From a virus (Duplodnaviria; Heunggongvirae; Uroviricota; Caudoviricetes): 43,859 nt of DNA. Position 1 is the first letter of the stretch. Every line of letters starts with the position of its first letter. The DNA is taken from the IMG/VR virus record IMGVR_UViG_2908567220_000006, positions 1 to 43,859 of that record; one strand, given 5' to 3'. Under the pieces are notes generated by a model. The model saw only the letters and a program-made list of their open reading frames with translations. It was not told where the DNA came from and ran no database searches. Positions 5,865-43,859 of the stretch are shown piece after piece. The position numbers and the translations under genes are program-made.

Positions 5865-5879
5865 TAGCGGAGATTAATC

Positions 5880-7477: not shown

Positions 7478-7514
7478 TACCAGCGCGATAGCGCATTTTT
7501 TTACGCCTCGACAA

Positions 7515-7591: not shown

Positions 7592-7594
7592 ATC

Positions 7595-7939: not shown

Positions 7940-8000
7940 ATCGACGATCTTTTTAGTTACCAATGTAATCAATAAGTTATGTGGATAAGCGAGGGTAAAG

Positions 8001-9417: not shown

Positions 9418-9480
9418 CATGAGCGAAATTGACTATCAGGCTTCAATTGCCGCAGGCATTCGCATCAAAGAAGGTGAGTA

Positions 9481-9657: not shown

Positions 9658-9830
9658 AAAACCGTAAGGCAAAACGACTTTTTTTACAGCGACCTGTGCG
9701 TGTGGTGGAGCTGGTTATTAGCAACCATAAGATAGCGGTACTCCATCCATTTGGTCAGGTGGCTTTTGCCGCAAAGCGTAAGCCTACTGCGTCACAGAAC
9801 AGGCGGAAGAAAGGGTACGCAGTAAGATGA
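9654..9830 (+). CDS. small basic hypothetical protein (58 aa), paralog of next gene
   Basis: Own translation MKNRKAKRLFLQRPVRV...; shares the MKNRKAK N-terminus and start context with the gene at 9827. Confidence 0.35.
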   Translation: MKNRKAKRLFLQRPVRVVELVISNHKIAVLHPFGQVAFAAKRKPTASQNRRKKGYAVR

Positions 9831-10015
9831 AAAACCGTAAAGCAAAGATTCTGTTAGTTCGTAGAAACGCTCCTGGCGTCTGGCAGTGGGTGAGACTCAG
9901 CAACCGACGGATGGGGTTGATGAAATATTACGGGATGATGGATTGTGGTTTTTGCAAAAAGTCCAGCGCGGCGCAAAACCGCTGGAGAAACCATTTGCGC
10001 ACTAAAGGAGAGTGA
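9827..10015 (+). CDS. small basic hypothetical protein (62 aa)
   Basis: ORF-track protein MKNRKAKILLVRRNAPG...; ATGA overlap with the upstream paralog. Confidence 0.4.
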   Translation: MKNRKAKILLVRRNAPGVWQWVRLSNRRMGLMKYYGMMDCGFCKKSSAAQNRWRNHLRTKGE

Positions 10016-10017
10016 TA

Positions 10018-10226
10018 TGGCTATTGCCGCAAGTTACACCATGCATCTCTATTGTGACTGCCGCCAGTGTACGGAAGGTGTATATCCAGTGCCAGACTTC
10101 GGTGAGTATATCGGTACGTCATGGTCTGGTTGTGCAAAAGAGGCCCGTAAAGACGGGTGGCGAATAAGCAAAGACAAAACTCGTGCTTTTGCGCCAGGGC
10201 ATAAAGTTTTAAGGATTAACAAATGA
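10018..10226 (+). CDS. small Cys-rich hypothetical protein
   Basis: Start taken at MAIAASYTMHLYCDCRQC, which has a GGAG SD upstream. Confidence 0.45.
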
Positions 10227-11191
10227 CCACTATTACCAGAGAAAACGCGGAAATTAAATCATTCATCACTGGTTTCCTGAGCGACCCGGCGCACGATAAC
10301 CAATCTACAGACAGCCTGCTTGCCAATGTGTTTCGTATCGCACAGGCATCGCTGGAAGCAGAGCCTATTGGTGAAGTTTCAGAGAAGCGATATGGCCTTG
10401 TTATGGATGGAACGGTAGACCTTGGCGGGAAATCAACTTATCGCATCATTAAGGGAGAAAAAGCGATGAAGTTGTTGCCGTTGGGGACGAAGTTTTATAC
10501 CGCACCGCCAGCGCCGGTAATACAGGCTGATATCGCGCAAGCAATTGAAAACCTAAAGCAAAAGTTAGTGGAATGCAATCGCTATAACTACTGCGCAGAT
10601 GCAGTTAAAGGTGTTGAGGATGCCAGCCGCGTCTTGGCACTCCAATATCAAAATATGTCAACGCCGATAACGCCGGAGGCCATTGAAAACGCAATTGAAT
10701 ACATCCGCAGTATCGCTTTTCACATCGATGAAGACGATTACCACGGCAAGCATATTGCGTATTTCATGCGACAAGCACTGGCCTGGCTGGAAGGGCATTC
10801 ATGCAGCGACGACAGACTGGGTAAAGCCGAGAATCAAACAGTACACGGCAACCAGGCTGCCGAATCCAATCGCGGTAATGAGTGGACCGGCAATCCTGAT
10901 ATTGATAACGCAATCATCATGCTCGACCGCATAGATACGCTGGAAAGTTGCGATGATGACCGTATTGAGGCTGTTAAGGCTGTTTTGCGTAGACTGGCTG
11001 GCAACTCTCCGGTAACTCCGGATGGTTGGGTTATGGTGCCGAAGGAGTTAACCCCGGAAATGATGAGAGCCGTTCAGATTAGAAGTGAGCTTGGAGGGTA
11101 TGCCACTTCCAATCTATCTGGTGCATACAATATGTTTTCTGAGTTCTGGAATGTTGCTGTCTCAGCTGCGCCTAAGGTTGATGATTTATGA
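10223..11191 (+). CDS. hypothetical phage protein (322 aa)
   Basis: Long ORF in operon; no motif assigned. Confidence 0.55.
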   Translation: MTTITRENAEIKSFITGFLSDPAHDNQSTDSLLANVFRIAQASLEAEPIGEVSEKRYGLVMDGTVDLGGKSTYRIIKGEKAMKLLPLGTKFYTAPPAPVIQADIAQAIENLKQKLVECNRYNYCADAVKGVEDASRVLALQYQNMSTPITPEAIENAIEYIRSIAFHIDEDDYHGKHIAYFMRQALAWLEGHSCSDDRLGKAENQTVHGNQAAESNRGNEWTGNPDIDNAIIMLDRIDTLESCDDDRIEAVKAVLRRLAGNSPVTPDGWVMVPKELTPEMMRAVQIRSELGGYATSNLSGAYNMFSEFWNVAVSAAPKVDDL

Positions 11192-11490
11192 ATCTATATC
11201 GCTGCCCATTCTGTGGTTCCACTGTGCTTAACATCGGATACTCATTCAGTATCAGAGGGAAAATGCGCTATGTGTCATGCAAATGTGGTGCCCAAGGACC
11301 AGAAAAACGAACTAAATCTGAAGCGATTTCTTCATGGAATAGTCGAATGAAAGTATGGGTTTATGATCCAGAAACCATATTAAACGCTGAAGAGCGCAGG
11401 AGAACGGAAGTCTATATTCATAACCTTAATGAAGATGGATTTACACCAGTGCTTGTAAAGGCTACTCCGCAGGAGGTTAACCGTGGCTAA
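11188..11490 (+). CDS. Lar-family restriction-alleviation-like protein (zinc ribbon)
   Basis: N-terminal CPFCGS...CKC motif as in Lar-family proteins. Confidence 0.5.
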   Translation: MNLYRCPFCGSTVLNIGYSFSIRGKMRYVSCKCGAQGPEKRTKSEAISSWNSRMKVWVYDPETILNAEERRRTEVYIHNLNEDGFTPVLVKATPQEVNRG

Positions 11491-11764
11491 CCTTCAACTT
11501 GCCGTCAAAGGTGAATACTTCGATGCCATGATTCGAGGAGAGAAAACGGAAGAGTATCGCCTGTGTAATAACTATTGGAATAAGCGAATTATGTTCCGGG
11601 AGTATGACCGCCTGATTATCACAAAGGGATATCCGAAGCGTGACGATTCCAGCCGCAGAATTGACGTTCCGTATGGCGGCTATGAAATCAAGACAATCAC
11701 ACATCCGCACTTCGGCGATAAACCGGTAAAGGTGTACGCGATAAAGGTGAATATTGATGGCTAA
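11483..11764 (+). CDS. ASCH/PUA-like domain protein
   Basis: LAVKGEYFDAMIRGEKTEEYR pattern resembles ASCH-fold proteins. Confidence 0.45.
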   Translation: MANLQLAVKGEYFDAMIRGEKTEEYRLCNNYWNKRIMFREYDRLIITKGYPKRDDSSRRIDVPYGGYEIKTITHPHFGDKPVKVYAIKVNIDG

Positions 11765-12095
11765 ATCAGCAGCAGAGCGCAAAGCCGCTCAGAGAGCCAG
11801 ACAAGCTGCATCTGGTGTGCGTAAGCTGGAAATTGTGCTTGATGCTCAGGAAATTGAAATGCTGGAGCGTAACTGTGCCACGCGTCGCCCCGGGCGTGCG
11901 CCTTACGAATTTGGTGAGTATATAGCGTTACTGATCCGCCAGGATGATGCACGCGTGCGCGGGCGTATAAAATCGATCAGCAGAAAATGTTGCGGTAAGT
12001 GCGGCGAGAGAGTTCCAGTTAATTCATGCCCGTGTAATGGTGACTCGCAATGCTGGGTGACTAAAGGCTGGCATGAAACGAAATTAATAGTGTGA
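11754..12095 (+). CDS. Cys-rich hypothetical protein; candidate late-gene regulator
   Basis: C-terminal CCGKCG...CPCNGDSQC cluster; last gene before a terminator and the terminase operon. Regulator role is inference from position only. Confidence 0.45.
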   Translation: MMAKSAAERKAAQRARQAASGVRKLEIVLDAQEIEMLERNCATRRPGRAPYEFGEYIALLIRQDDARVRGRIKSISRKCCGKCGERVPVNSCPCNGDSQCWVTKGWHETKLIV

Positions 12096-12144
12096 CATGT
12101 CACGAGTAGATTATGCATGATGAATTTGATGGGTTTTGAATACT

Positions 12145-12170
12145 GCCGCCAACTATGGCGGCTTTATTTT
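12145..12170 (+). terminator. intrinsic terminator upstream of terminase operon
   Basis: GCCGCC-AACTAT-GGCGGC hairpin followed by TTTATTTT. Confidence 0.5.
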
Positions 12171-12181
12171 GCATGGTACTA

Positions 12182-12214
12182 TTACCACAACGGTAACTAT
12201 TACCACGGTGGTTA
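12182..12214. promoter_or_regulatory. palindrome pair immediately upstream of small terminase start
   Basis: 12182-12196 perfect TTACCacaacGGTAA; 12200-12214 TTACCacggtGGTTA overlapping the SD. Confidence 0.5.
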
Positions 12215-12216
12215 TG

Positions 12217-12810
12217 ATGCCTGCTGAACCTAAAACCTATAAACGCAAATCAACGCAATTTAAGCCACTAACAGCAATGCAGGAGGCTTATTGCCAGTCA
12301 TACATCAAAACGCCTGAAAACCAGACTCAGGCAGCGATTAACGCAGGATTCTCCCCAAATACAGCGGCAGTTAAAGCCAGTGTCATGATGCGCGATGAAC
12401 GCATTCAAAAACGGATTGCCGAGTTGATGGAGGAGCGCAACAAACGAATGCGCGTCAGTGCTGATTACGTTCTCATGCGCCTGGTGGAGATCGACCAGAT
12501 GGACGTGATCGACATCCTCAACGACGATGGGAGCCTTAAACCAATCCGTGAGTGGCCGAAAATCTGGCGCACTACGCTTAGTGGCTTTGATCTGTCATCG
12601 ACCATCATGAACATGAACGAGGATTCGATAGAGACAATCCTCAAAAAAATTAAATGGCCTGACAAGGTGAAGAACCTTGAGCTGATTGGTAAGCATGTTG
12701 ATGTCAACGCGTTCAAAGAACGTCTGGATGTTAATGTGAATGTGACAATTGCTGATCGCATAGCAGCAGCCAGGAAGCGACTCAAAGAACGTCAGGATGG
12801 TAATCAGTGA
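12217..12810 (+). CDS. terminase small subunit
   Basis: Start at MMPAEP with GGTGG SD; about 197 aa, directly upstream of and overlapping the large terminase. The ORF-track start at 12136 would read through the operator copies. Confidence 0.7.
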   Translation: MPAEPKTYKRKSTQFKPLTAMQEAYCQSYIKTPENQTQAAINAGFSPNTAAVKASVMMRDERIQKRIAELMEERNKRMRVSADYVLMRLVEIDQMDVIDILNDDGSLKPIREWPKIWRTTLSGFDLSSTIMNMNEDSIETILKKIKWPDKVKNLELIGKHVDVNAFKERLDVNVNVTIADRIAAARKRLKERQDGNQ

Positions 12811-14282
12811 CAGATACAGCGTTATCTCCTGAAGAGCAGTTGATCGAGGATATTGCAGGGTTCACTCACGATCCGCTTGGCTATGCCCTCTATGCGTTCC
12901 CGTGGGGGGAAGAGGGGACTGAACTGGCACATGCCACCGGCCCACGTCAGTGGCAGGCTGATGCGTTCCGAGAGATACGTGATCACCTGCAGAATCCAGA
13001 GACGCGCTATCAGCCGCTTATGCTGGCACGCGCTTCTGGTCACGGTATTGGTAAATCCGCATTCATCTCAATGCTGATCAACTGGGGCATGTCCACTTGC
13101 GAGGATTGTAAGGTCGTGGTGACCGCCAACACCGACAACCAGCTACGAACGAAGACCTGGCCGGAAATTATCAAGTGGTCGAACCTTGCTATCACGAAAG
13201 ACTGGTTTACCTGTACCGCTACCGCGATGTACAGCAATGATCCTGGACACGACAAGCGGTGGCGAGCTGACGCAATACCCTGGTCTGAGCACAACACTGA
13301 GGCATTCGCCGGACTACACAACGAGCGCAAACGCATCATCGTGGTATTCGATGAAGCGTCGAACATTGCGGATCTGGTGTGGGAAGTTGCCGAGGGTGCG
13401 CTAACGGACGAAGACACTGAGATTATCTGGGTGGCGTTCGGAAACCCGACGCGTAATACCGGACGTTTCCGCGAATGTTTCCGCAAATATAAACACCGCT
13501 GGAAAACTGCGCAGATTGACAGCCGGACGGTGGAAGGCACCAACAAACAGCAGTTGCAGAAATGGGTTGATGACTACGGGGAAGACAGCGACTTCGTAAA
13601 AATCCGTGTGCGCGGCATATTCCCTGATGCATCTGAATTGCAGTTTATCCCTACCGGTCTTACTGACGAGGCAATGAAACGGGTGGTAACTGCTGCGCAG
13701 GTGGCACATGCTCCGGTGATAATCGGCGTTGACCCTGCATACTCCGGTGTTGATGACGCGGTGATATACCTGCGGCAGGGGCTGCACAGTAAGGTGCTGT
13801 GGACCGGCAACAAGACCACTGACGATCTGATTATGGCAAAGCGTATCGCTGACTTTGAAGACCAGTATCAGGCTGACGCGGTGTTCATCGACTTCGGTTA
13901 CGGTACCGGGCTGAAGTCAATCGGTGACGGTTGGGGGCGCACATGGCAACTTGTTCCGTTCGGTGGTGCGTCCACTGACCCGCAGATGCTTAACAAGCGT
14001 GGGGAGATGTTCAATGCATGCAAGACATGGCTGAGGCTGGGCGGCATGCTGGATGACCAGGAAACAGCGGACGAACTGTCGGCGGCAGAGTACAAAGTTC
14101 GCGTGGACGGTAAAATCGTTATCGAACCGAAGGAAGATATCAAGGAGCGGCTTGGGCGTTCGCCGGGTAAAGGCGATGCGCTACTGCTGACGTTTGCTTT
14201 CCCGGTGTCGAAGCGTCTGCGAATTCCCGGTCAGCAGAACCAGCAAGGCAAGGCCATTACAGATTACGATCCCTATGCTTAA
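12807..14282 (+). CDS. terminase large subunit
   Basis: 491 aa; Walker-A-like ARASGHGIGKS; GTG start overlapping upstream stop. Confidence 0.85.
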   Translation: MTDTALSPEEQLIEDIAGFTHDPLGYALYAFPWGEEGTELAHATGPRQWQADAFREIRDHLQNPETRYQPLMLARASGHGIGKSAFISMLINWGMSTCEDCKVVVTANTDNQLRTKTWPEIIKWSNLAITKDWFTCTATAMYSNDPGHDKRWRADAIPWSEHNTEAFAGLHNERKRIIVVFDEASNIADLVWEVAEGALTDEDTEIIWVAFGNPTRNTGRFRECFRKYKHRWKTAQIDSRTVEGTNKQQLQKWVDDYGEDSDFVKIRVRGIFPDASELQFIPTGLTDEAMKRVVTAAQVAHAPVIIGVDPAYSGVDDAVIYLRQGLHSKVLWTGNKTTDDLIMAKRIADFEDQYQADAVFIDFGYGTGLKSIGDGWGRTWQLVPFGGASTDPQMLNKRGEMFNACKTWLRLGGMLDDQETADELSAAEYKVRVDGKIVIEPKEDIKERLGRSPGKGDALLLTFAFPVSKRLRIPGQQNQQGKAITDYDPYA

Positions 14283-14333
14283 TCCTCTGGAGGGGATAAT
14301 GCTGCTGATATCCTCTGGTGAGGATAAAACAAA

Positions 14334-14359
14334 GCCAGCTCATCGGCTGGCTGTTTGTG
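14334..14359. terminator. bidirectional hairpin between terminase operon and convergent moron
   Basis: GCCAGC-TCATCG-GCTGGC stem flanked by T-rich tracts on both strands. Confidence 0.45.
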
Positions 14360-14372
14360 ACATGTCACGGTG

Positions 14373-14729
14373 TTATTGCTCGCTTAACTTCTGCTTCAGC
14401 AAGTAACCTTCGAGCATCCAGATTTTGTTTACAGCATTCTGCCGGGCAATCTTCCGACCAATTTCTGCATCAAAATTTTCCGGACTTGCACAGGCACTCT
14501 CTCCGGTGACGGTGAAGCCATTCTTCAGTACCAATACGCAGAAAGTCAGGAGGTCTGTAGATTTATGCGCTGTCCATGAATCGCCAACGCCCATATTGGC
14601 AGCACGAATGCCGTCATAAGCAGTAAAGAAATGCTCTTCAAGAATGATGCTTTCGATATATTGAGGCGTAACTCGCGGAGCGGTTTTGCCTTTCTCAACG
14701 ATTTCTTTTTCGATTTGCTGGTCGTTCAT
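14373..14729 (-). CDS. hypothetical protein, reverse-oriented moron in the late region
   Basis: 118 aa; AAGGTGAG SD; opposite strand to all flanking structural genes; a weak resemblance to small phage Gp49/Sf6 gp66-like proteins is recalled but unverified. Confidence 0.5.
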   Translation of the reverse strand: MNDQQIEKEIVEKGKTAPRVTPQYIESIILEEHFFTAYDGIRAANMGVGDSWTAHKSTDLLTFCVLVLKNGFTVTGESACASPENFDAEIGRKIARQNAVNKIWMLEGYLLKQKLSEQ

Positions 14730-14740
14730 AATCTCACCTT

Positions 14741-14764
14741 AAAAAAATGCCCGGCGAACCGGGC
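14741..14764 (-). terminator. intrinsic terminator immediately upstream of moron gene
   Basis: GCCCGG-TTCG-CCGGGC hairpin followed on the minus strand by TTTTTTT, about 10 nt before the gene's SD. Confidence 0.6.
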
Positions 14765-14840
14765 GAACTGGAAGCAATGAGTTATGCCTTCCGTGGCTGT
14801 ACTGGTTTACAGCATGAAGTCATCGCAATGGCGTCCTGCT

Positions 14841-14884
14841 GTAAAAAGGGCGGTGATAGTCCTTCAAGGGAAACCATCACCGCC
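14841..14884 (-). terminator. intrinsic terminator downstream of tRNA-Arg
   Basis: 9-bp stem GGCGGTGAT/ATCACCGCC followed on the minus strand by CTTTTT, about 45 nt after the tRNA 3' end. Confidence 0.55.
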
Positions 14885-14927
14885 AAGCACCTGGAACTTC
14901 TGGCATCACGGTCCTTAGGCGTGATTC

Positions 14928-15004
14928 TGGCGTGGCATGCAGGATTCGAACCTGCGACCAACCGCTTAGAAGGCGGTTGCTCTGTCCAGCTGAGCTAATG
15001 CCAC
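14928..15004 (-). tRNA. tRNA-Arg (anticodon UCU)
   Basis: Manual fold of the reverse complement: 7-bp acceptor stem GTGGCAT/ATGCCAC, D-arm GCTCAGCTGGACAGAGC, anticodon stem ACCGC/GCGGT with loop CTTCTAA, T-arm GCAGGTTCGAATCCTGC, discriminator G plus CCA. Acceptor stem differs from my recollection of host argU. Confidence 0.9.
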
Positions 15005-15326
15005 AACGCTGAGAGCACTTAGCCTGTTAAGGCGCCACACTTTGTCGCGGCTCCATAAATGCTCTCATCGTTGTGCCCTCGTCTCTTCCGAGGCGTCACA
15101 CCGAATCGCCGGGATGGTGAATCCCCGTGCGCGGAATAAAACCGCTCGACTTGCACATTCCGGCTACCTGGTTCGTTTGCCCGAGCAAGGGAGGGTGCCC
15201 CTTAAACGTATCCAGACCGCTATCGGCGCATGTGCCATACGCCGTACTGCTCAAAATAAAAGTTCACTCCACCTGTTCAATTTAACGACAAGCCAGTCAG
15301 GTTAATAACCGGAATGAACCCTTTGC

Positions 15327-15341
15327 TTACCTGAAAGGTAA
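15327..15341. promoter_or_regulatory. palindrome copy upstream of portal/head operon
   Basis: Perfect TTACCtgaaaGGTAA about 90 bp upstream of the first ORF of the head operon. Confidence 0.5.
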
Positions 15342-15431
15342 TAATTTGTGCGTTAAATGTCAACTGTCTACGATAAATAAATCATATGTGGTTAAATTGG
15401 TAATAATTTAATTGCGTACGGAGTCATTGAT

Positions 15432-15638
15432 ATGTGCATGGGTAGCTCACCATCAGTGCCTGCAACACCAGAAGTTCAGGCAGCACCACAGGAGCAGGAT
15501 GCCGCCGTTGTTGATGCCCGCGACGAAGAAACTCGTCGCCGTCGCGCTGCTGCTGGTCGTAGTTCTACGCTGCTTACCGGTTCTCAGGGCGACACATCAA
15601 CCGCTAATACCAGCGGTAAAACGCTGCTTGGTCAGTAA
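15432..15638 (+). CDS. small hypothetical protein upstream of portal
   Basis: 68 aa; GGAG SD; its start context cggagtcattga is repeated before the portal start. Confidence 0.4.
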   Translation: MCMGSSPSVPATPEVQAAPQEQDAAVVDARDEETRRRRAAAGRSSTLLTGSQGDTSTANTSGKTLLGQ

Positions 15639-15652
15639 CCGGAGTCATTGAA

Positions 15653-17332
15653 ATGGCGGAAACAACTAAAGAGCGATTGAACAAACAGTTCGCACAACTT
15701 GAAAGCGAGCGTCAGTCGTTCGAGCCGCACTGGCGCGAGTTGAGTGATTACATCAACCCGCGTGGTTCCCGCTTTCTGACTTCTGAGGTCAACCGTAACG
15801 ATCGACGCAATACACGCATTATTGATTCGACCGGGACTATGGCGGCGCGCACTCTCGCCAGCGGCATGATGTCAGGCATCACAAGCCCCGCGCGTCCGTG
15901 GTTTCGCCTGGCTACGCCAGATCCTGAAATGATGGATTATGGCCCTGTTAAGTTGTGGCTTGAGGCGGTGCAGAACCGTATGAACGATATGTTCAATAAG
16001 TCGAATCTCTATCAGTCGCTGCCGCAGTTATACGGAAGCCTCGGCACATACAGCACTGGTGCAATGGCGGTGCTGGAGGATGACGAGGACATCATTCGCA
16101 CAATGCCATTCCCGATAGGCAGTTACTACCTGGCTAACTCACCTCGTGGCAGTGTGGACACCTGTTTTCGCAAGTTCTCTATGACTGTTCGTCAGCTTGT
16201 TCAGGAATTCGGACTAAATAACGTCAGCGAATCCGTAAAAAGCATGTGGGAAAGCGGCACCTACGAGAAGTGGATTGAAGTGATGCATTCGGTTTACCCG
16301 AACATTGACCGCGATACATCGAAGCTGGATAGCAAGAACAAGCCATTCAAATCGGTTTATTACGAGGTTGGTGGCGACAACGACAAGTTGTTACGTGAAT
16401 CCGGATTCGATGAGTTTCCAATTATGGCTCCGCGCTGGGAAGTTAACGGCGAAGATGTTTATGGATCATCATGCCCGGGTATGCTGGCGCTTGGACCTGT
16501 TAAGGCATTGCAGCTTCTTCAGAAGCGCAAGTCGCAGTTGATTGATAAAGCCACCAATCCGCCGATGGTTGCTCCGACTTCCCTCAAGAATCAGCGCGCC
16601 TCCCTTCTTCCTGGCGACATCACGTATATCGATCAGATTACTGGTCAGGATGGTTTCAGGCCTGCTTATCTGGTTAACCCCAGTACAGCAGATCTGGTGG
16701 CAGACATTCAGGACACTCGTCAAATCATTAACAGCGCCTACTTTGTCGATCTGTTCATGATGTTGCAGAACATCAATACCCGCTCGATGCCTGTGGAAGC
16801 GGTGATCGAAATGAAAGAAGAAAAACTTCTGATGTTGGGGCCGGTTCTGGAGCGTCTGAACGACGAATGTCTTAATCCTCTCATTGACCGCGCTTTCTCG
16901 ATGATGGTGCGTAAAAACATGCTGCCGCCACCGCCTGACGCGATGGAAGGCATGCCCCTGAAGGTCGAATACATTTCCGTCATGGCTCAGGCGCAGAAGT
17001 CTATCGGCCTGTCCAGTCTGGCGTCCACGGTTAACTTCATTGGTCAACTTGCGCAAGCGAAACCAGAAGCTCTCGACAAACTCAACGTTGATCAGGCGAT
17101 CGATGCATTCGCTGATATGTCCGGAGTGTCTCCAACCGTCATTGTTCCGCAGGAACAGGTTGAGCAGGCTCGCCAGCAACGGGCACAGCAGCAACAGCAG
17201 CAACAAATGATGGCGATGGGGATGGCGGCGGCACAGGGTGCCAAGACGCTAAGCGAAGCTAAAACTTCGGATCCGAGTGTTTTGTCAGCTATGGCGAATG
17301 CAGTTAGTGGTCAGGGTGGGCAATCACAATGA
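15653..17332 (+). CDS. portal (head-to-tail connector) protein
   Basis: 559 aa; position after the terminase region; Gln-rich C-terminus QQRAQQQQQQQMMAMGMAAAQ reminiscent of T7-type connectors. Confidence 0.7.
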   Translation: MAETTKERLNKQFAQLESERQSFEPHWRELSDYINPRGSRFLTSEVNRNDRRNTRIIDSTGTMAARTLASGMMSGITSPARPWFRLATPDPEMMDYGPVKLWLEAVQNRMNDMFNKSNLYQSLPQLYGSLGTYSTGAMAVLEDDEDIIRTMPFPIGSYYLANSPRGSVDTCFRKFSMTVRQLVQEFGLNNVSESVKSMWESGTYEKWIEVMHSVYPNIDRDTSKLDSKNKPFKSVYYEVGGDNDKLLRESGFDEFPIMAPRWEVNGEDVYGSSCPGMLALGPVKALQLLQKRKSQLIDKATNPPMVAPTSLKNQRASLLPGDITYIDQITGQDGFRPAYLVNPSTADLVADIQDTRQIINSAYFVDLFMMLQNINTRSMPVEAVIEMKEEKLLMLGPVLERLNDECLNPLIDRAFSMMVRKNMLPPPPDAMEGMPLKVEYISVMAQAQKSIGLSSLASTVNFIGQLAQAKPEALDKLNVDQAIDAFADMSGVSPTVIVPQEQVEQARQQRAQQQQQQQMMAMGMAAAQGAKTLSEAKTSDPSVLSAMANAVSGQGGQSQ

Positions 17333-17625
17333 CAGATTACGAAGACGATCAACTGAAAGAAGAAAACGCCCGTAAGCAACGTGACATGGCACAGCGTGAA
17401 ATTGATGACATTCGCTTTGTCATGAGCAGTAAACAGGGGCGTCGCGTTGTCTGGTCGGTGCTGGAGAAAGGCCGTGTGTTTTCCGCTATCTCACCGATGG
17501 ACGCTATGGCAATGGCATTTAATGAGGGGCAACGCAATCTGGCGCTGGAACTGTTTCAGCGCGTTATGGCGCATTGCCCTGAACAGTATTTGAAGATGGC
17601 CAAAGAGGCCAGTGAACAGGAGTGA
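17329..17625 (+). CDS. hypothetical head-assembly protein
   Basis: 98 aa, translationally coupled between portal and scaffold genes. Confidence 0.45.
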   Translation: MTDYEDDQLKEENARKQRDMAQREIDDIRFVMSSKQGRRVVWSVLEKGRVFSAISPMDAMAMAFNEGQRNLALELFQRVMAHCPEQYLKMAKEASEQE

Positions 17626-17627
17626 TC

Positions 17628-18323
17628 ATGAATTTATTTGAGCGTTTGCTGTATCGCCGTCTTTGCAATGAGCAACCAGTCGATGGTGGAGCAGCTCCGG
17701 CTGCGTCAGAACCGTCAGCGCCTGCAGGTGATAACCCTGCTCCAGTTGGTGATCCATCACAACAAGAAGGTGATAAGCCGCAACCTGTTGCTGATGGCGA
17801 TAAACCTGCTGATGACAAAAAGCCTGAAAGCGATAAGCAGGGTGAAAAAAAGGACGGCGATAAACCGGATGGTGCGCCGGAGAAGTACGAGTTTCAGGCT
17901 GCCGAAGGCGTAGAGCTGGATACAGAAGCGTTGAAGGAATTCGAGCCAGTGGCGCGAGAACTTAACCTGACCAACGAGCAAGCGCAAAAGCTGGTTGATG
18001 CTTATCCGAAGATTCTGGCAGGTGTTCAGCAGCGCCAGGCAGAAGCCTGGCAGAAAACAACCGAGCAGTGGGCTGCGGATGTAAAAGCTGACAAAGAAAT
18101 CGGTGGCGACAAGTTGATTTCTAACCTTAGCGCCGCACAGCGTGCGCTTGACCAGTTCGGGACACCTGAACTCAAAGAATATCTGAACACCACCGGGCTG
18201 GGTAATCACCCTGATCTGGTCAAAACGTTCGTGAAAATCGGAAAGGCGATGTCTGAAGATGGCATGGTCACCGGTGGTAATGAAGGCCAGCGTAGTGCGG
18301 CCGAAGTGCTCTATGGCAAATAA
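17628..18323 (+). CDS. scaffolding protein (putative)
   Basis: Acidic, Ala/Pro/Asp-rich, low-complexity N-terminus and helical C-terminus; located between portal and capsid genes. ATG 17628 has a CAGGAG SD. Confidence 0.55.
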   Translation: MNLFERLLYRRLCNEQPVDGGAAPAASEPSAPAGDNPAPVGDPSQQEGDKPQPVADGDKPADDKKPESDKQGEKKDGDKPDGAPEKYEFQAAEGVELDTEALKEFEPVARELNLTNEQAQKLVDAYPKILAGVQQRQAEAWQKTTEQWAADVKADKEIGGDKLISNLSAAQRALDQFGTPELKEYLNTTGLGNHPDLVKTFVKIGKAMSEDGMVTGGNEGQRSAAEVLYGK

Positions 18324-18331
18324 GAGAGGAA

Positions 18332-19324
18332 ATGACAATGGCTGTTAAAGGCTTAACTGCGCTAACGCTGGCTGACTGGGGTAAGCGCGTCGATCCAAAC
18401 GGGAAAGTCGATAAGATTATCGAGCTTCTCAGTCAAACCAACCCAATCCTTCAGGATATGCCTTTTGTTGAAGGAAACCTTCCTACCGGACACCGAACCA
18501 CCATTCGTTCTGGTTTGCCTTCCGCTACCTGGCGTTTGCTGAACTATGGCGTACAACCGAGCAAATCAACAACGGTGCAGGTCACTGATTCCATTGGCAT
18601 GCTGGAAACCTATGCTGAAGTCGATAAGTCTCTGGCTGATCTGAACGGTAATACTGCCGAATTCCGCCTGTCTGAAGACCGAGCATTTATTGAAGCGATG
18701 AATCAGGCGATGGCGCAGACGCTGTTTTACGGTGATTCCAGCGTTAACCCTCAGCAGTTTATGGGACTGTCCTCCCGCTATTCCAGCCTGTCTGCGGGTA
18801 ATGCTCAGAACATCATTGATGCTGGTGGCACGGGTACAGATAACACTTCAATCTGGTTAGTGGTGTGGGGCGAAAACACCGTGCATGGCATCTTCCCGAA
18901 AGGGCAGAAGGCTGGCATCCAGATGGAAGATAAAGGCCAGGTGACACTGGAAGATGCTAATGGCGGCAAGTACGAAGGTTATCGTACCCATTATAAGTGG
19001 GACAACGGGCTGACATTGCGTGACTGGCGCTATGTTGTTCGCATTGCAAACATCGATGTCAGCAATCTTGACGCTCCTTCTACTGCTGCGAATATCGCAA
19101 AACTGATGATTCGTGCCCTTCATCGAATCCCAAATCGTGGGATGGGACGTCCTATTTTCTACATGAACAGAACCATTAACGAAGTGCTTGACCTGCAATC
19201 TCTGGAGAAGAGTTCTCTGGCGATCAGCGTGAAAGAGACAGAAGGCGAATGGTGGACAGAACTTCGTGGTGTGCCGATTCGCGAAACTGACGCACTTCTG
19301 GAAACAGAAGCCCGCGTGGTGTAA
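18332..19324 (+). CDS. major capsid protein (putative)
   Basis: 330 aa, immediately after the scaffold gene and followed by a strong stem-loop, as for T7 gene 10. Confidence 0.6.
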   Translation: MTMAVKGLTALTLADWGKRVDPNGKVDKIIELLSQTNPILQDMPFVEGNLPTGHRTTIRSGLPSATWRLLNYGVQPSKSTTVQVTDSIGMLETYAEVDKSLADLNGNTAEFRLSEDRAFIEAMNQAMAQTLFYGDSSVNPQQFMGLSSRYSSLSAGNAQNIIDAGGTGTDNTSIWLVVWGENTVHGIFPKGQKAGIQMEDKGQVTLEDANGGKYEGYRTHYKWDNGLTLRDWRYVVRIANIDVSNLDAPSTAANIAKLMIRALHRIPNRGMGRPIFYMNRTINEVLDLQSLEKSSLAISVKETEGEWWTELRGVPIRETDALLETEARVV

Positions 19325-19350
19325 CGCCTGTTATTAACCTGTGGGTCGTA

Positions 19351-19369
19351 ACAGACCCACTAATGGAGA
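19351..19369 (+). terminator. stem-loop after capsid gene
   Basis: GTGGGTC-GTAACA-GACCCAC perfect 7-bp stem; no T-run, so possibly a processing or attenuating structure. Confidence 0.4.
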
Positions 19370-19375
19370 AAGAAG

Positions 19376-19813
19376 ATGATCACCGACAAACTGTTGATGT
19401 TCTCCGAAGCTCAGGCGGTTACGAATACCGCGGCTTCTACTGACGTAATCGATCTCGGTCCAATTGACGGAAACCGTCGCGATATCGGTGTGGGTTACCC
19501 GCTTGAGTTTTGGGCGCTGGTTAACGAAGCCGCCACGGCAAGTGGTGAGGCAACTGTAAACATCCAGTTGCAGACGAGTGAGAATAACAGCTCATGGTCC
19601 ACTATTTATGATAGTGGCGCACTGGCAAAGGCCACCCTGACAGCAGGTAAGCGAGTTGTTTCTGCAAAGGTGCCAGCCGGTGTTCAGCGATATCTGCGTG
19701 TTAACTACTCCGTCGCAACTGGCCCACTAACGGCTGGCAAATTCACTGCGGGTATCAATCTTGATGTTGATGCCAATACGCCGTATCCGATCCGCTCAAA
19801 AGTAACTGGTTAA
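19376..19813 (+). CDS. hypothetical virion protein (possible capsid decoration)
   Basis: 145 aa, strong SD, beta-rich composition. Confidence 0.45.
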   Translation: MITDKLLMFSEAQAVTNTAASTDVIDLGPIDGNRRDIGVGYPLEFWALVNEAATASGEATVNIQLQTSENNSSWSTIYDSGALAKATLTAGKRVVSAKVPAGVQRYLRVNYSVATGPLTAGKFTAGINLDVDANTPYPIRSKVTG

Positions 19814-19814
19814 G

Positions 19815-20159
19815 GTGATATTGATGTCAGGTGAGAAACCAAGATACCGCGTTCTGCGCCTCTCTCATATCCATAACACTCTGTGGCCGGAGGGGGCAGA
19901 AATCGAATACGAAGGTGAGCCTGGTAGCGCACTGGAACCTGTTAACGATGCAGCCAGACAGGCAAAAGCAAAGGTAGCAGGAAAGGTGTCTATGGCAGCA
20001 ACCAGCACCAAAATCATCAACGATGTGTCAGATGATGGTGAACTGGATAAGCTCCGTGAAGAGTACGAATTGCTCTTTAACGAGAAGCCACACCATAACG
20101 CCAAAGCAGAAACGCTCCGCGAGAAGATCGCAGATAAGCGTAAAGAACTGGGCGTGTAA
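19815..20159 (+). CDS. hypothetical virion protein
   Basis: 114 aa; followed by an intrinsic terminator. Confidence 0.45.
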   Translation: MILMSGEKPRYRVLRLSHIHNTLWPEGAEIEYEGEPGSALEPVNDAARQAKAKVAGKVSMAATSTKIINDVSDDGELDKLREEYELLFNEKPHHNAKAETLREKIADKRKELGV

Positions 20160-33560: not shown

Positions 33561-33827
33561 GGCGATCACCTTTGTAGTTAGGTTAATCACCACCGCTGAG
33601 ACCAATCAGATGGTGGTGAACTGTGCAGAGTTGGTCTTACCGGCTACAAAGGAACCCGGCGCACCTTTCGGTGCCCCCACACAGCCCACCATAGAATAGG
33701 TGCGCTTTACACATAAAAAAACCGCTTATGCGGCATATGTGCCTCTGTAGTAATCCGGGAGACCAATCCCGGCACTGGATTTTGCCAGTGCCCGATTACT
33801 ATGGCACAAGAGGAGTGCGATGTAAAT

Positions 33828-38088: not shown

Positions 38089-38707
38089 CGAGTTTCAGAA
38101 AGCTGCCGGCGTTAGCCTGGCGCTGGCCACACGCTGGCATCCGCACATTGTGGCGGCCATGAAAGAGTTTGGCATTATCAAGCCGTTGGATCAGGCGATG
38201 TTTATTGCCCAGGCCGGGCATGAAAGCACTGGATTTACCCAGCTAGTTGAGAGCTTCAACTACAGCGTCAGCGGACTGGCTAACTTCGTTCGGGCTGGGC
38301 GTCTCACTCAGGGACAGGCTAATGCACTGGGTCGCCGTGCTGGTGAACCGCCATTACCACTCGAGCGCCAGCGCGCGATCGCAAATCTGGTGTACAGCAA
38401 ACGCATGGGTAACAATGCTCCTGGCGATGGCTGGAGTTACCGAGGTCGCGGACTTATCCAGATTACCGGCTTGAATAACTATCGTGACTGCGGAAACGGT
38501 CTGAAAGTTGACCTGCTGGAGAATCCTGAACTGCTGGCACAGGACGAATACGCGGCTCGTAGCGCGGCCTGGTTCTTCTCCTGCAAAGGCTGCATGAAGT
38601 ATATCGGCGATATTGCACGTGTAACTCTGATTATCAATGGTGGCAGGAACGGCATTGATGACCGGCGCGCGCGATACATCATTGCCAGTAAGGTGCTGGC
38701 TGTATGA
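38078..38707 (+). CDS. endolysin, glycoside hydrolase family 19 (chitinase-like lysozyme)
   Basis: Motifs [12 protein letters not shown] and [13 protein letters not shown] typical of GH19 endolysins. Confidence 0.8.
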
Positions 38708-39186
38708 TCTGGGCATTCGTAAAAGCATACTGGAAACAGTTGCTTATCGTGGCGATGCTTGCTGTTCTTGCCACATCAGGAGTTGTTGCCTGGAATATAC
38801 ACGGCAGCCGCCAGTACGATGCCGGGTATGCGCAGGCGGTAGAAGACCGCAAAGACGAAGAAGACAAAGTTCGTCAGTACTACGAACAGGAGAAAGTGAC
38901 CAATGAACGTGAAGCGCAGCATAGGATCGATCAGGCGCGCAGTGATGCTCTTGATGCTGCCGCTCGCGCTGGCAGGTTGCAGCAACAGCTCGTTGCCATC
39001 CGTGAGCAGCTCAGGCAGTATAACGCCATTGTCGGCGCTGGGACGTCAGCCGCAGACACCGGAGTTTTGCTTGCCGACGTGCTCAGCAAATCTCTCGAGA
39101 GAAATAGACAACTGGCAGAGTATGCTGACCGGGCAGCCGAAGCCGGAAGAGTCTGCGAAAAACAGTATGACACCCTGACAAGATAG
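38704..39186 (+). CDS. i-spanin (Rz-like)
   Basis: N-terminal TM helix then a charged coiled-coil periplasmic domain; follows the endolysin. Confidence 0.6.
38903..39178 (+). CDS. o-spanin (Rz1-like lipoprotein) embedded in the Rz frame
   Basis: Alternate frame wholly inside the Rz gene; signal peptide with lipobox LALAGC; Pro/Ser-rich mature part. Confidence 0.55.
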   Translation: MNVKRSIGSIRRAVMLLMLPLALAGCSNSSLPSVSSSGSITPLSALGRQPQTPEFCLPTCSANLSREIDNWQSMLTGQPKPEESAKNSMTP

Positions 39187-39360
39187 CATGGCATTTTTCA
39201 TGGTACTGATTTCCGGTGACGGTATATAAAACGGTACTAAAAAAATGAAGTTTTGGAAAAATGTTATCACTCAATTGGTTATGGCTGCCGTAAATAATTG
39301 AGTGGGAATGATTTAACGTCTGGCAACAGCCTGCACGTAAAAGCAGTAAAGTACCTCTAA

Positions 39361-39390
39361 GCCCGCGTAACTGCGGGCTTTTTTGTTTTT
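39361..39390 (+). terminator. intrinsic terminator after lysis cassette
   Basis: GCCCGC-GTAACT-GCGGGC followed by TTTTTTGTTTTT. Confidence 0.65.
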
Positions 39391-39618
39391 GTGTCTGGCA
39401 CTTTCTGGCAGCTGTTAGCAACGGGAAGCACGGTTTTTTCAATGGAATTTTTGATGGTACTCTCTGATTTCGAATTCAGGTTTGAAAAAGTACCATGTGA
39501 TAAATTTCGGTTGAGTTATGGTATTTGTTTTTTTATAACTCAATTAAAAACAGATAGTTAAACAACTTTTCTGAATTTTTTACAACATGGTATTTTTGAT
39601 AAAGGAAAACAATAAACC

Positions 39619-40809
39619 ATGTTGACTGACACCAGGCTGCGTCACCTTAAGCCGAAGGAGAAACTCTATAAAGTTAATGACCGTGATGGTCTGTATGTTG
39701 CGGTCACTCCGGCTGGAACTATTTCATTTCGTTATAACTATTCAATAAACGGAAGACAGGAGACTGTTACTTTTGGCCGCTATGGTGTTGGAGGGATCAC
39801 GCTTGCAGAAGCGCGTGAACGGCTCAATGAAGCCAAAAAAATGGTTGCCAGTGGAATATCGCCTGCGAGGGAAAAAGCCAGAGATAAAGCGCGTATTAAA
39901 GATGCGGAGACTTTTGGTGCGTGGACTGAGAAATGGTTACGCGGTTATCAAATGGCTGAATCGACGCGTGATATGCGGCGTTCGGTATATCAAAGGGAGT
40001 TGAAGTCAAAATTTGCCCAGCAGAAACTTAGTGAGATTACACATGAAGACTTACGCGCATTAACCGATAACATTGTCGAGAGAGGGGCACCAGCGACAGC
40101 TGTACACGCTAGAGAGATTGTATTGCAAGTCTATCGCTGGGCTATTGAGCGCGGTCAGAAGGTGGAGAATCCTGCTGATCTGGTACGGCCTGCAAGCATA
40201 GCGAAATTTGAGCCTCGAGACAGGGCATTGACGCCAGTTGAAATTGGTCTGATGTATCGGTACATGGAACGGGTAGGAACGACGCCATCAATCAGAGCAG
40301 CGGTTAAACTTTTGCTGTTAACGATGGTACGTAAAAGTGAGCTTACTAACGCAACCTGGAACGAGATCAATTTTAGTGAGGCATTATGGACGATACCAAA
40401 GGAAAGGATGAAACGACGTAATCCACATTTGGTTTTTCTTTCCAGACAGGCAATGGATATTATGATTGCTCTCAAAACCTTTGCCGGTAGCTCTGATTTT
40501 ATCCTTCCTTCGCGGTACGATTCCGATGCGCCAATGAGTAGCGCTACTTTAAACCGGGTTTTGACACTGACGTATCGCCTGGCTCAGAAAGAAGGGGAGT
40601 TGTTGCCTAAGTTTGGTCCCCATGACTTACGGCGTACAGCCAGCACCTTGCTACATGAGGCCGGGTACAATACTGACTGGATTGAGAAGAGCCTTGCCCA
40701 TGAACAAAAAGGGGTACGAGCTGTTTATAACAAGGCAGAATATCGTGAGCAGAGGGCTGAGATGCTACAAGATTGGGCGAATATGATTGATGAATGGACT
40801 AGTAAGTAG
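39619..40809 (+). CDS. int: tyrosine integrase (P4-type)
   Basis: 396 aa; P4-like N-terminal arm-binding region (LYKVNDRDGLYVAVTPAGTISFRYNYSINGRQ) and C-terminal catalytic region (HDLRRTAST...Y). Confidence 0.85.
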   Translation: MLTDTRLRHLKPKEKLYKVNDRDGLYVAVTPAGTISFRYNYSINGRQETVTFGRYGVGGITLAEARERLNEAKKMVASGISPAREKARDKARIKDAETFGAWTEKWLRGYQMAESTRDMRRSVYQRELKSKFAQQKLSEITHEDLRALTDNIVERGAPATAVHAREIVLQVYRWAIERGQKVENPADLVRPASIAKFEPRDRALTPVEIGLMYRYMERVGTTPSIRAAVKLLLLTMVRKSELTNATWNEINFSEALWTIPKERMKRRNPHLVFLSRQAMDIMIALKTFAGSSDFILPSRYDSDAPMSSATLNRVLTLTYRLAQKEGELLPKFGPHDLRRTASTLLHEAGYNTDWIEKSLAHEQKGVRAVYNKAEYREQRAEMLQDWANMIDEWTSK

Positions 40810-40944
40810 TTAATAATCAGTAAGTTAAGTGGTTGTGCTTCTTTTTTCTACGGTAGGAGAGCAATTTTAGCCGCTAAAATTTACTGAATCTTTACTGGTT
40901 TTATCTGGATTGCATAAAAAGGAAAAATAAAAGTGGATTTGCCC

Positions 40945-41850
40945 CTATATTTCCAGACATCTGTTATCACTTAACCCATTACAAGCCCGCTGCCGCAGAT
41001 ATTCCCGTGGCGAGCGATAACCCAGCGCACTATGCGGATGCCATTCGTTATAATGCTCGAACGCCTCTGCAAGGTTCTTTGCTGCCGTTAACCCGTCTGG
41101 TTTGGGCATGATACTGATGTAGTCACGCTTTATCGTTTTCACGAAGCTCTCTGCTATTCCGTTACTCTCCGGACTCCGCACCGCCGTGTTCTTCGGTTCA
41201 AGTCCCAACATCCGGGCGAACTGGCGTGTTTCATTAGCCCGGTAGCATGAACCATTATCCGTCAGCCACTCCACTGGAGACGACGGAAGATCGTTGCCGA
41301 AGCGGCGTTCCACCGCTCCCAGCATGACGTCCTGTACTGTTTCACTGTTGAAGCCGCCGGTAGTGACCGCCCAGTGCAGTGCCTCACGATCACAGCAGTC
41401 CAGCGCGAACGTGACACGCAGTCTCTCTCCGTTATCACAGCAGAACTCGAACCCGTCAGAGCACCATCGCTGATTGCTTTCTTTCACGGCCACTCTGCCT
41501 GTATGTGCCCGTTTCGATGGCGGTACAGCAGGTTTTCGCTCAAGCAACAGCGCATTCTGGCGCATGATCCGGTAAACACGTTTGGCATTGATCGCAGGCA
41601 TACCATCAAGTTCTGCCTGTCTGCGAAGCAGCGCCCATACCCGACGATAACCATACGTGGGCAGCTCTCCGATAACATGGTGTATACGGAGAAGCACATC
41701 CGTATCATCAGTGTGACGACTGCGGCGGCCATCCATCCAGTCATCGGTTCGTCTGAGAATGACGTGCAACTGCGCACGCGACACCCGGAGACAACGGCTG
41801 ACTAAGCTTACTCCCCATCCCCGGGCAATAAGGGCGCGTGCGCTATCCAC
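40945..41850 (-). CDS. insD: IS2 transposase OrfB (InsD)
   Basis: 301 aa, recognised as IS2 OrfB from memory; expressed by frameshift from OrfA. Confidence 0.85.
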
Positions 41851-42218
41851 TTTTTTGCCCGTCCATATTCAACGGCTTCTTTGAGGAGTTCATTTTCCAT
41901 CGTTTTCTTGCCGAGCAGGCGCTGGAGTTCTTTAATCTGCTTCATGGCGGCAGCAAGTTCAGAGGCAGGAACAACCTGTTCTCCGGCGGCGACAGCAGTA
42001 AGACTTCCTTCCTGGTATTGCTTACGCCAGAGAAATAACTGGCTGGCTGCTACACCATGTTGCCGGGCAACGAGGGAGACCGTCATCCCCGGTTCAAAGC
42101 TCTGCTGAACAATTGCGATCTTTTCCTGTGTGGTACGCCGTCTGCGTTTCTCCGGCCCTAAGACATCAATCATCTGTTCTCCAATGACTAGTCTAAAAAC
42201 TAGTATTAAGACTATCAC
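41808..42218 (-). CDS. insC: IS2 transposase OrfA (InsC)
   Basis: HTH-containing OrfA; overlaps OrfB in a different frame. Confidence 0.85.
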
Positions 42219-42295
42219 TTAAATAAGTGATATTGGTTGTCTGGAGATTCAGGGGGCCAGTCTAAAAAGTGCCTGAGTTGTCTGTAATTATACAA

Positions 42296-42898
42296 TGGAT
42301 GAATCAATACCCTAAGACCGGCTGGCTATTGCTGTGTATCTATATTGCACTCGGTGTAGTTCGTCACAGAGTAATTAATGCTGAATCTGGAAGTGTATTT
42401 CGTGGACTACTCAATCTTAGGAAGCGCCGGCTAGAGCAAATGCTGACACAGCCATATTCGAATAAAAATGCGGTCCGTCTGGCAAAGCGTGAGCTTCGTC
42501 AGCGCAGCCTTTATCGGCTCACAGGCTTGTATAATTATCGGCTGCAGGATTTGGCTGTAATAATGTGTGATCGTTATGGGTTGCGGGCTGGTTATCTCAA
42601 GCCGTGGCGTAACTGGCTCGAAGAACGGGATGGACGGATTGTGTTCAACAGGAAATGGCATTGTTTTCGCTGGCGTCTTTTTCTGGTAGGTCAGATTGTA
42701 AACACAGTTCTACTAATATTATTCATTATGTATATAGTTTCTCATTCTTCGGCCGAAATGATCGCACCGCTTATGTTACTCTTCATGCTTGTATGGTGGT
42801 TTCCTTGGCTAATGATCACCTCGGTACCTACCCCTAGGTGGACTCGCGAAATGGAAGTCTATCTTGAGAAATTTAACGCTGAACAGACCATGGTTTAA
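42296..42898 (+). CDS. hypothetical membrane protein (N-terminal TM, basic soluble domain, two C-terminal TM helices)
   Basis: Start at ATG 42296 (MDESIP) rather than the ORF-track start at 42269, which lies in the IS2 target duplication; IS2 sits 27 bp upstream. Confidence 0.5.
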   Translation, partial: WMNQYPKTGWLLLCIYIALGVVRHRVINAESGSVFRGLLNLRKRRLEQMLTQPYSNKNAVRLAKRELRQRSLYRLTGLYNYRLQDLAVIMCDRYGLRAGYLKPWRNWLEERDGRIVFNRKWHCFRWRLFLVGQIVNTVLLILFIMYIVSHSSAEMIAPLMLLFMLVWWFPWLMITSVPTPRWTREMEVYLEKFNAEQTMV

Positions 42899-42945
42899 AC
42901 TGTTCTTTGTTACCATGCATTCAGAGTGAAGGTAATGACTCCAAC

Positions 42946-43449
42946 TTATTGATAGTGTTTTATGTTCAGATAATGCCCGATGACTTTGTCATGCAGCTCC
43001 ACCGATTTTGAAAACGACAGCGACTTCCGTCCCAGCCGTGCCAGGTGCTGCCTCAGATTCAGGTTATGCCGCTCAATTCGCTGCGTATATCGCTTGCTGA
43101 TTACGTGCAGCTTTCCCTTCAGGCGGGATTCATACAGCGGCCAGCCATCCGTCATCCATATCACCACGTCAAAGGGTGACAGCAGGCTCATAAGACGCCC
43201 CAGCGTCGCCATAGTGCGTTCACCGAATACGTGCGCAACAACCGTCTTCCGGAGACTGTCATACGCGTAAAACAGCCAGCGCTGGCGCGATTTAGCCCCG
43301 ACATAGCCCCACTGTTCGTCCATTTCCGCGCAGACGATGACGTCACTGCCCGGCTGTATGCGCGAGGTTACCGACTGCGGCCTGAGTTTTTTAAGTGACG
43401 TAAAATCGTGTTGAGGCCAACGCCCATAATGCGGGCTGTTGCCCGGCAT
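42946..43449 (-). CDS. insB: IS1 transposase InsB
   Basis: 167 aa, recognised as IS1 InsB. Confidence 0.85.
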
Positions 43450-43643
43450 CCAACGCCATTCATGGCCATATCAATGATTTTCTGGTGCGTACCGGGTTGA
43501 GAAGCGGTGTAAGTGAACTGCAGTTGCCATGTTTTACGGCAGTGAGAGCAGAGATAGCGCTGATGTCCGGCGGTGCTTTTGCCGTTACGCACCACCCCGT
43601 CAGTAGCTGAACAGGAGGGACAGCTGATAGAAACAGAAGCCAC
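43368..43643 (-). CDS. insA: IS1 InsA
   Basis: 91 aa, [43 protein letters not shown] recognised as IS1 InsA. Confidence 0.85.
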
Positions 43644-43698
43644 TGGAGCACCTCAAAAACACCATCATACACTAAATCAGTAAGTTGGCAGCATCACC

Positions 43699-43859
43699 GG
43701 AAGAATGGAAATAATATTAACGGTTTTAGTTTCTTGTTTGGTATTCAGTTGATCGGTTTGATAAACATCGGCGGCATGATCGTCAGCATTTGACTGGCAT
43801 CCTGCCAGAGTGAATGACGCTAACATTGCCACAGGCAGAAGACATTTTTTAAATTTCAT
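43699..43859 (-). pseudogene. lipoprotein gene truncated at its 3' end by IS1
   Basis: Starts at the window edge with MKFKKCLLPVAMLASFTLAGCQ (signal peptide and lipobox); the reading frame runs into the IS1 terminus. Confidence 0.45.

Follow-up and report, generated by a model that had tools for sequence, protein, structure and literature searches.

The left part of the 43,859-nt stretch of viral DNA analysed here (the whole stretch is called the window) is a Uetakevirus prophage of the epsilon15/phiV10 kind, with ~97% identity to vB_EcoP_PAS61 and phiv142-3 over the aligned part only, which covers ~70% of window positions 1 to 20000. The prophage genes include an AlpA-family gene, RecT, a methylase, holins, an endolysin and Rz. 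The last gene of the lysis cassette is an Rz-like spanin gene on the plus strand (38704-39186; Pfam DUF2514, E = 3.7e-42) with an embedded Rz1 (38903-39178), a layout found in phiV10 and epsilon15 as well. It is followed by a gap (39187-39618) and by a gene on the plus strand for a tyrosine integrase of 396 aa (39619-40809; Pfam Arm-DNA-bind_3, Phage_int_M and Phage_integrase). The gap is AT-rich as first described, with 35% G+C vs 48.6% for the window. Next come an IS2 copy (40934-42264, minus strand) with a 5-bp target duplication AAAAG (40929-40933 and 42265-42269), a 209-aa ORF without a Pfam match (42269-42898, plus strand) and an IS1 copy (42931-43698, minus strand) that abuts the 5′ portion of the host's yfgH gene (43699-43859, minus strand; 100% identity to E. 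coli VTB97432v and 99.4% to the K-12 yfgH region). In a preliminary description, the gap had been taken as the candidate attP arm region of a single phage whose own integrase gene follows.

A BLAST search with 500 bases around the gap separated it into two halves with an overlap of 17 nt. The left half (39150-39313), comprising the end of the Rz gene and the attP left arm, shows 99.4% identity to phiV10 over 164 nt, with homology ending at 39313, and 78 to 93% identity to other epsilon15-like phages. The right half (39297-39650) shows 95 to 98% identity to junctions of guaA with a tyrosine integrase gene in phage-free E. coli chromosomes. The overlap is the att core, ATTGAGTGGGAATGATT (39297-39313, plus strand), as defined by the breakpoints in side-by-side alignments that took in K-12 attB, phiV10 and epsilon15 attP, the attL of the phiV10-like prophage in E. 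coli R18 and the island junction of VTB97432v. The core covers the end of the guaA reading frame, from the fourth-last sense codon to the stop codon (I-E-W-E-stop), plus 2 nt, and it is common to phage, island and host attB. For vB_EcoP_ZX5, phiV10 and epsilon15, experiments have confirmed the same 17-mer as the attP/attB core (PMC9782041). Its centre in the window, GAGTGGGA, is identical to the recombination core of GIsul2 (PMC9376610). The left flank of the core is phage-type (…GCCGTAAATA) and the right flank is island-type (TAACGTCTGGC…).

The region 39187-39618 is a hybrid junction, composed of the attR half of the prophage and the attL half of an island, and not a phage attP. The preliminary description held that the att core could not be placed because phage DNA continues on both sides. 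Neither part survived the alignments: the core position is exact, and the right side is an island remnant followed by IS2, IS1 and host yfgH. Alignment to a free-phage genome had been proposed there as a check; with phiV10, homology extends only to 39313 and gives way to island sequence. The composite structure, the core position and the identities of both elements are established by these comparisons. The same tandem is found in E. coli R18, in the order guaA, phage int … Rz, then island int, RepA, TraJ, TrbJ/L … yfgI. R18 is the best full-length junction match in the E. coli collection (96.4%), and the hybrid junction is rare, being present in two of 5426 complete E. coli genomes.

On the prophage side, the int-distal (P) arm at 39187-39296 (plus strand) is the attR arm. 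It is 99% identical to phiV10, adjoins the Rz/Rz1 lysis genes as does the attP left arm of phiV10 and epsilon15, and is conserved in epsilon15, SPN1S, BUCT554 and Klebsiella prophages. Compared to the Uetakevirus att sites at the guaA 3′ end (epsilon15, phiV10 and vB_EcoP_ZX5), the core ATTGAGTGGGAATGATT is identical and the left arm, including GTGACGGTAT, is 99.4% identical to phiV10, but their right arm and int are absent here and island sequence is found instead, because on its host side the prophage attR borders on another integrated element. No int of the phage itself is present in the window: in a tblastn search, the phage-type Int matched the gene at 39619 only, with 53% identity. In the alignment with PAS61, window position 1 corresponds to the base immediately following int, and in R18 the prophage's own int adjoins guaA with a matching attL. 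By analogy to these two relatives, the prophage int should lie just left of position 1. A phiV10-type int, an int-proximal arm with GGCGGTAC-AGGT-GACGGTAT, the core and guaA would be expected to the left of the window.

Some other features were noted in the prophage part. A tRNA-Arg gene (anticodon TCT; 14928-15004, minus strand) sits between the genes for the large terminase and the portal protein and is oriented opposite to both. It is probably of phage lineage, since phiV10 aligns there at near-equal length (7925 vs 7905 nt). At 33609-33791 (minus strand), Rfam matches to C4 antisense RNA (78.6 bits) and isrK (74.7 bits) are adjacent to each other; they form a P1/P7-type module of antisense immunity that precedes a probable antirepressor gene, here in a podovirus prophage. 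In the segment 12146-12212, a terminator-like hairpin GCCGCCAACTATGGCGGC with a T-run precedes a direct repeat, CATGGTACTATTACCAC / AACGGTAACTATTACCAC, and the probable start of the small terminase gene lies shortly downstream; window position 12096 corresponds to the first base of the phiV10 record. This segment may have a role in packaging or late control, and its GGTAC similarity to the att motif does not exceed chance.

On the island side, the int-proximal arm (39314-39618, plus strand) is the attL arm. It shows 97 to 98% identity to guaA-int junctions in E. coli VTB97432v and HS, Citrobacter, Dickeya, Yersinia and Shigella, with matches starting at 39297 (39298 for the Shigella locus). 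The integrase belongs to the GIsul2-Int family. It shares 86.8% aa sequence identity with GIsul2 Int of plasmid R485 vs 53% with the phage-type Int, so that it can no longer be regarded as the phage's own, and it is the sole int homologue in the window. Its arm-binding domain (PF13356, Arm-DNA-bind_3) covers residues 2-88 with E = 7.8e-20. We found 84 to 99% aa sequence identity of this Int to the integrases of 80 loci (L009-L088) from alpha-, beta- and gamma-proteobacteria; the loci span Enterobacterales, Vibrionales, Pseudomonadales, Burkholderiales, Xanthomonadales, Hyphomicrobiales and Sphingomonadales. The distance from GAGTGGGA to the int start is 319 nt in the window and ~317 to 320 nt in nearly all of the 80 loci. 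High Int conservation together with constant arm length points to a very recent and broad horizontal spread of the integration module.

The gene order of GIsul2 in R485 is int-alpA-repA-repC-trbJ-trbK-trbL-ars-resolvase-ISVsa3-sul2. In E. coli HS, R18 and VTB97432v, int heads an island with HTH/RepA, TraJ, TrbJ and TrbL, an integrative mobilizable element of the GIsul2/"PIME" kind; the guaA site is common to PIME subfamilies (bioRxiv 10.64898/2026.01.12.698999). The window shares with this group the Int (86.8% identity), the position of GAGTGGGA 319 nt upstream of int, and the layout of terminator and motifs at the left end of R485 GIsul2. It differs in having only int and one ORF: the backbone genes (alpA, repA/oriV, traJ, trbJ and trbL) and the distal att repeat are lost, and there is no sul2 or CR2 in the remnant. 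The left neighbour here is a prophage instead of guaA, and the guaA body is displaced to the far side of the prophage. The 209-aa ORF, which follows int in intact islands, is 99.85% identical to positions 7632-8297 of an island comparison locus (L002). Since int is followed by IS2, one ORF, IS1 and then yfgH, the island is a remnant and not a complete or mobile member of the family. yfgI and the 3′ part of yfgH are also missing from the right end of the window. Presumably, they and the remainder of the island, including the distal att, were lost by an IS1-mediated deletion. The load of IS1 and IS2 suggests a Shigella-like or IS-rich Escherichia host.

A rho-independent terminator (39359-39386, plus strand) is carried by the island, and its stem GCCCGC/GCGGGC and T-run are conserved in 77 island arms. 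In the preliminary description it was assigned to the lysis operon and placed at the left border of the gap, but it lies inside the region and is the island's replacement for the guaA terminator. In a simple island attL it would replace that of guaA, and here it is placed after the phage lysis genes. The right arm of phiV10 attP has a terminator, AACCCTCTGTTTTTACAGAGGGTTTTT (L004, 3200-3241), that closely resembles the native K-12 guaA terminator AAACCCTCTGTTACTACAGAGGGTTTTTT. This resemblance suggests that the phage int-proximal arm was derived from captured host sequence. The island, unlike the phage arm, supplies a terminator different from these guaA-like sequences. In an Rfam search, no known RNA was found in 39100-39700 at the gathering threshold; at E ≤ 1 only sub-threshold leader and sRNA matches appeared, driven by the terminator hairpin.

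A family of short repeats upstream of int had been reported as candidate arm sites. The first copy CATGGTACTGATTTCC (39199), GATGGTACTCTCTGATTTCG (39453), the inverted copy AGTACCATG (39489) and CATGGTAT (39586) are present as described, while TATGGTAT lies at 39517-39524 and not at 39526, ~9 nt off. Four further members had been missed: CATGGCAT (39187-39194), AATGGAAT (39441-39448) and the phage-type GACGGTAT (39218-39225) and AACGGTAC (39230-39237). The enrichment is far beyond chance. ATGGTAY occurs five times within 39200-39594; in the 305 bp of 39314-39618 it was observed four times vs 0.04 expected, and none of 2000 dinucleotide-preserving shuffles reached four. ATGGTACT-N0-6-GATTTC was found twice vs 0.01 expected. 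In the whole window (43.9 kb), ATGGTAYT was observed eight times vs 2.46 expected, and five of the eight copies fall in 39200-39594. The remaining three (1667, 9159 and 12173) are at the level of chance, which is 2.46 for the whole window, and for this reason they were rejected as att-related and are not counted in the feature. Two of them, at 1667 and 12172 (12173 by our count), do exist as stated in the preliminary description.

To examine conservation, 77 unique int-proximal arms from the 80 loci were aligned, the distant ones being 51 to 63% identical to the window. CATGGTAY blocks are mostly invariant in 75 to 77 of the 77 arms at fixed offsets from GAGTGGG, with variable flanks; the core and the terminator stem are likewise invariant. 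The pair AATGGAAT-TTTT-GATGGTAC (39441-39460, plus strand) has a 12-bp phase and offsets of +141/+153. TGG.AT (39443-48; family form RTGG.AT at 39442-48) and the GG and A of TGGTAY (39455-60) are found in 77/77 arms. An inverted site follows at +190 (39490-39497), with CATGGTAC on the minus strand; in its form RTACCATG (39490-97), TACCAT is kept in all 77 arms and the flanking G in 76. The site TATGGTAT (39517-39524, plus strand; family consensus CATGGTAT) is at +217, with ATGGTA in 75 to 77 of 77 arms, and the site CATGGTAT (39586-39593, plus strand) is at +286, kept in 76 to 77 of 77 and ending 25 nt before the int start codon. The opposite, distal arm is readable in four islands (HS, R18, VTB97432v and GIsul2/R485). 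These four arms are dissimilar apart from a pair ATGGTAT-N5-ATGGTAT in 12-bp phase at -81/-69 or -82/-70. The conservation and the positions of the motifs are thus established as well. Three other blocks in the int-proximal arms, GCA..AAA (39343-39350), TGGCA (39406-39410) and AAGCAC (39426-39431), are invariant in 74 to 77 of 77 and unrelated to CATGGTAY; excisionase, IHF or another factor may bind them.

The prophage arm contains two pairs. The phage-type pair GTGACGGTAT / AACGGTAC (39216-39237, plus strand) has a 12-bp phase and offsets of -82/-70, and is invariant in seven phages. It reads as GACGGTAT/AACGGTAY at 39218-39237, at a position equivalent to that of the distal pair of the islands, and GTGACGGTAT is annotated as an "integrase" protein_bind feature in the epsilon15 record AY150271. 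The int-proximal arms of phiV10, epsilon15 and SPN1S share a pair (+128/+140), one single site (+154) and one in inverted orientation (+168/+169); the last is missing in BUCT554, where the pair and the single site are kept. The second pair, CATGGCAT-TTTT-CATGGTAC (39187-39206, plus strand; 12-bp phase, offsets -113/-101 from GAGTGGG), is island-like in sequence despite its location in the phage arm and includes the first copy of the preliminary description (39199). It is kept with small variations in all Uetakevirus arms examined and shows a 30-nt resemblance to the island pair at 39441-39472, which may reflect common ancestry of the att systems or cross-recognition. This extra pair falls outside our best explanation of the junction. 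An inverted repeat CACTCAATTGGTTATGGC / GCCGTAAATAATTGAGTG (39268-39304) has its right arm running into the core, and an analogous inverted repeat, CACTCTAT-TGATA-ATAGAGTG, is found in the distal arm of the E. coli HS island. In both the phage arm (CACTCAAT…ATTGAGTG) and the HS distal arm (CACTCTAT-TGATA-ATAGAGTG), the left half of the core recurs in inverted orientation, with different spacing. These copies may be core-type half-sites or a hairpin.

The repeated 8-mers are likely to be arm-type sites bound by the N-terminal domains of two related P4-type integrases (53% identical). This reading was adopted because the motif is unlike the core, occurs in both arms and both orientations, is position-invariant and co-varies with the integrase type: at equivalent offsets, the phage Int is accompanied by GACGGTAT and the island Int by CATGGTAT. 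Here the preliminary description is borne out in its idea of arm sites for Int, given the fixed offsets in 77 diverged arms and the pair in the opposite arm of four islands. The island Int would recognize CATGGTAY at five int-side sites (+141/+153, +190 inverted, +217 and +286) and, in intact islands, also at the pair of that type in the other arm (-81/-69), while the phage Int would recognize (G/A)ACGGTAY, represented in the window by the pair at -82/-70. Like the P/P′ arm sites of lambda Int and those of KplE1 IntS, the motif is short and distinct from the core, lies in both arms in direct and inverted orientation, is situated immediately upstream of int and goes with an integrase that has an N-terminal arm-binding domain; here, however, motif sequence and spacing are family-specific and are known from sequence comparison. 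In the GIsul2 and PIME literature searched, arm sites are not mentioned ("arm" is absent from PMC9376610 and "arm-type" from bioRxiv 10.64898/2026.01.12.698999); likewise, that search yielded no integrase-binding data for the GIsul2 Int family, for which only the core is described.

The same composite junction could have CATGGTAY bound by an island AlpA-type directionality factor, a host bending protein or an int regulator, which we regard as unlikely. Conservation shows constraint but does not tell which protein binds, a tandem arrangement of direct repeats in 12-bp phase is likewise characteristic of sites for excisionases, and the invariant TGGCA (39406-10) and AAGCAC (39426-31) may be read as signs that further factors bind the arm. 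The occurrence of the motif in both arms and both orientations, at five or more positions over ~370 bp surrounding the core, is nevertheless the pattern of arm-type Int sites in lambda and KplE1 (PMC2951348), and the motif variant changes with the integrase type at equivalent offsets, which argues for Int. The motif also differs from the IHF consensus. As for the AlpA-like protein of the phage (1709-1957), proposed earlier as a binder in this region, it has no evident link to the island arm.

At first sight the layout looks right for a single phage, with an intact attP or prophage att arm, the phage's own int and repeats bound by Int and an AlpA/Xis-like protein, because free epsilon15 and phiV10 share the order Rz, ~320 bp of attP and int on the same strand. 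This interpretation is hardly tenable in view of the end of phiV10 attP homology at the core, the presence of the right side beside guaA in phage-free strains, the Int identities (53% to the phage type vs 86.8% to GIsul2 Int) and the downstream IS2, island ORF, IS1 and host yfgH. A circular phage genome with an acquired int was rejected as well, since the window ends in host yfgH. It is also extremely unlikely that the phage is a mosaic in which the int module was swapped for that of the island at the shared core, with the island-type Int now its working integrase. Such an exchange would be feasible in view of the common 17-bp core and the related design of the arms, and the phage int is unseen in a window that starts exactly where PAS61 homology resumes after its int. 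Yet everything to the right of int is island DNA, IS elements or chromosomal yfgH, with no phage DNA among them; R18, the sole complete genome with the same junction that was examined, has the phage's own int beside guaA; and a prophage int would sit at the guaA-proximal end and not beyond attR. We estimate a probability of about 0.8 for the whole explanation, namely two mobile elements in tandem at the same 17-bp site at the guaA 3′ end, with the 8-mers as Int arm sites.

Arrays of elements that share one att site are well known, e.g., satellites and islands at tRNA genes. As in those arrays, two elements with related integrases in one attB have given rise to a hybrid internal att site; here, by contrast, the pair is a podovirus and an IME remnant, and the hybrid junction is rare, as given above. 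The elements, the core and the tandem occupancy of one att site are all of known kinds, so the junction is a new instance of ordinary biology and not a new kind. What is modestly new is the explicit map of arm sites, for GIsul2-family integrases and for their phage counterpart.

From the sequence we infer Int binding to the motifs, autoregulation and excision competence as steps in the function of the junction. For the prophage, it would serve as a complete attR, with the phage's own arm (99% phiV10) and an intact core. The prophage is therefore probably still able to excise, provided that int and xis at its other end are intact. The sites of the island remnant cannot support excision, since the distal att is lost and there is no partner site. 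Int probably represses its own promoter via the sites at +217 and +286, because both precede the int start by no more than ~100 nt. The sequence suggests TTGAGT-17-TATAAC (39511-39539) as a candidate promoter of int, and its spacer holds the +217 site, which also makes autorepression probable. A simple sigma-70 scan found no canonical promoter in 39381-39618. A sigma-54 reading of CTGGCACTTTCTGGCAG (39396-39411) was discarded, as the spacing does not fit TGGCAC-N5-TTGC. In KplE1, the attL arm sites of IntS overlap the intS promoter; autorepression was shown there and predicted to be general (PMC2951348).

The annotation of the window is corrected in that the prophage ends at 39313, the visible integrase is not that of the phage, and the AT-rich "intergenic" region consists of two half-sites. 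It is conceivable, though rather doubtful, that the island Int may bind the phage arm and help or block excision or integration of the prophage, an integrase cross-talk at guaA. The idea comes from the island-type pair (39187-39206) that the phage arm keeps outside its own GACGGTAT pair, and from the intact integrase and arm kept by the island. If true, such cross-talk would be a satellite-like or defence-like interaction between this IME family and Uetakevirus phages, and would explain why an orphan int is retained. The phage and island Int, 53% identical and with the same geometry and a different 8-mer, form a natural pair for the study of arm-site specificity. If the arm-site reading is true, the N-terminal domain of the island Int (~residues 1-88) would prefer CATGGTAT over the altered CATCCTAT. 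The arm-site map of CATGGTAY (-81/-69, +141/+153, +190, +217 and +286) provides a testable consensus for GIsul2-type integrases, the family behind the movement of GIsul2 and related resistance-carrying islands in Pseudomonadota.
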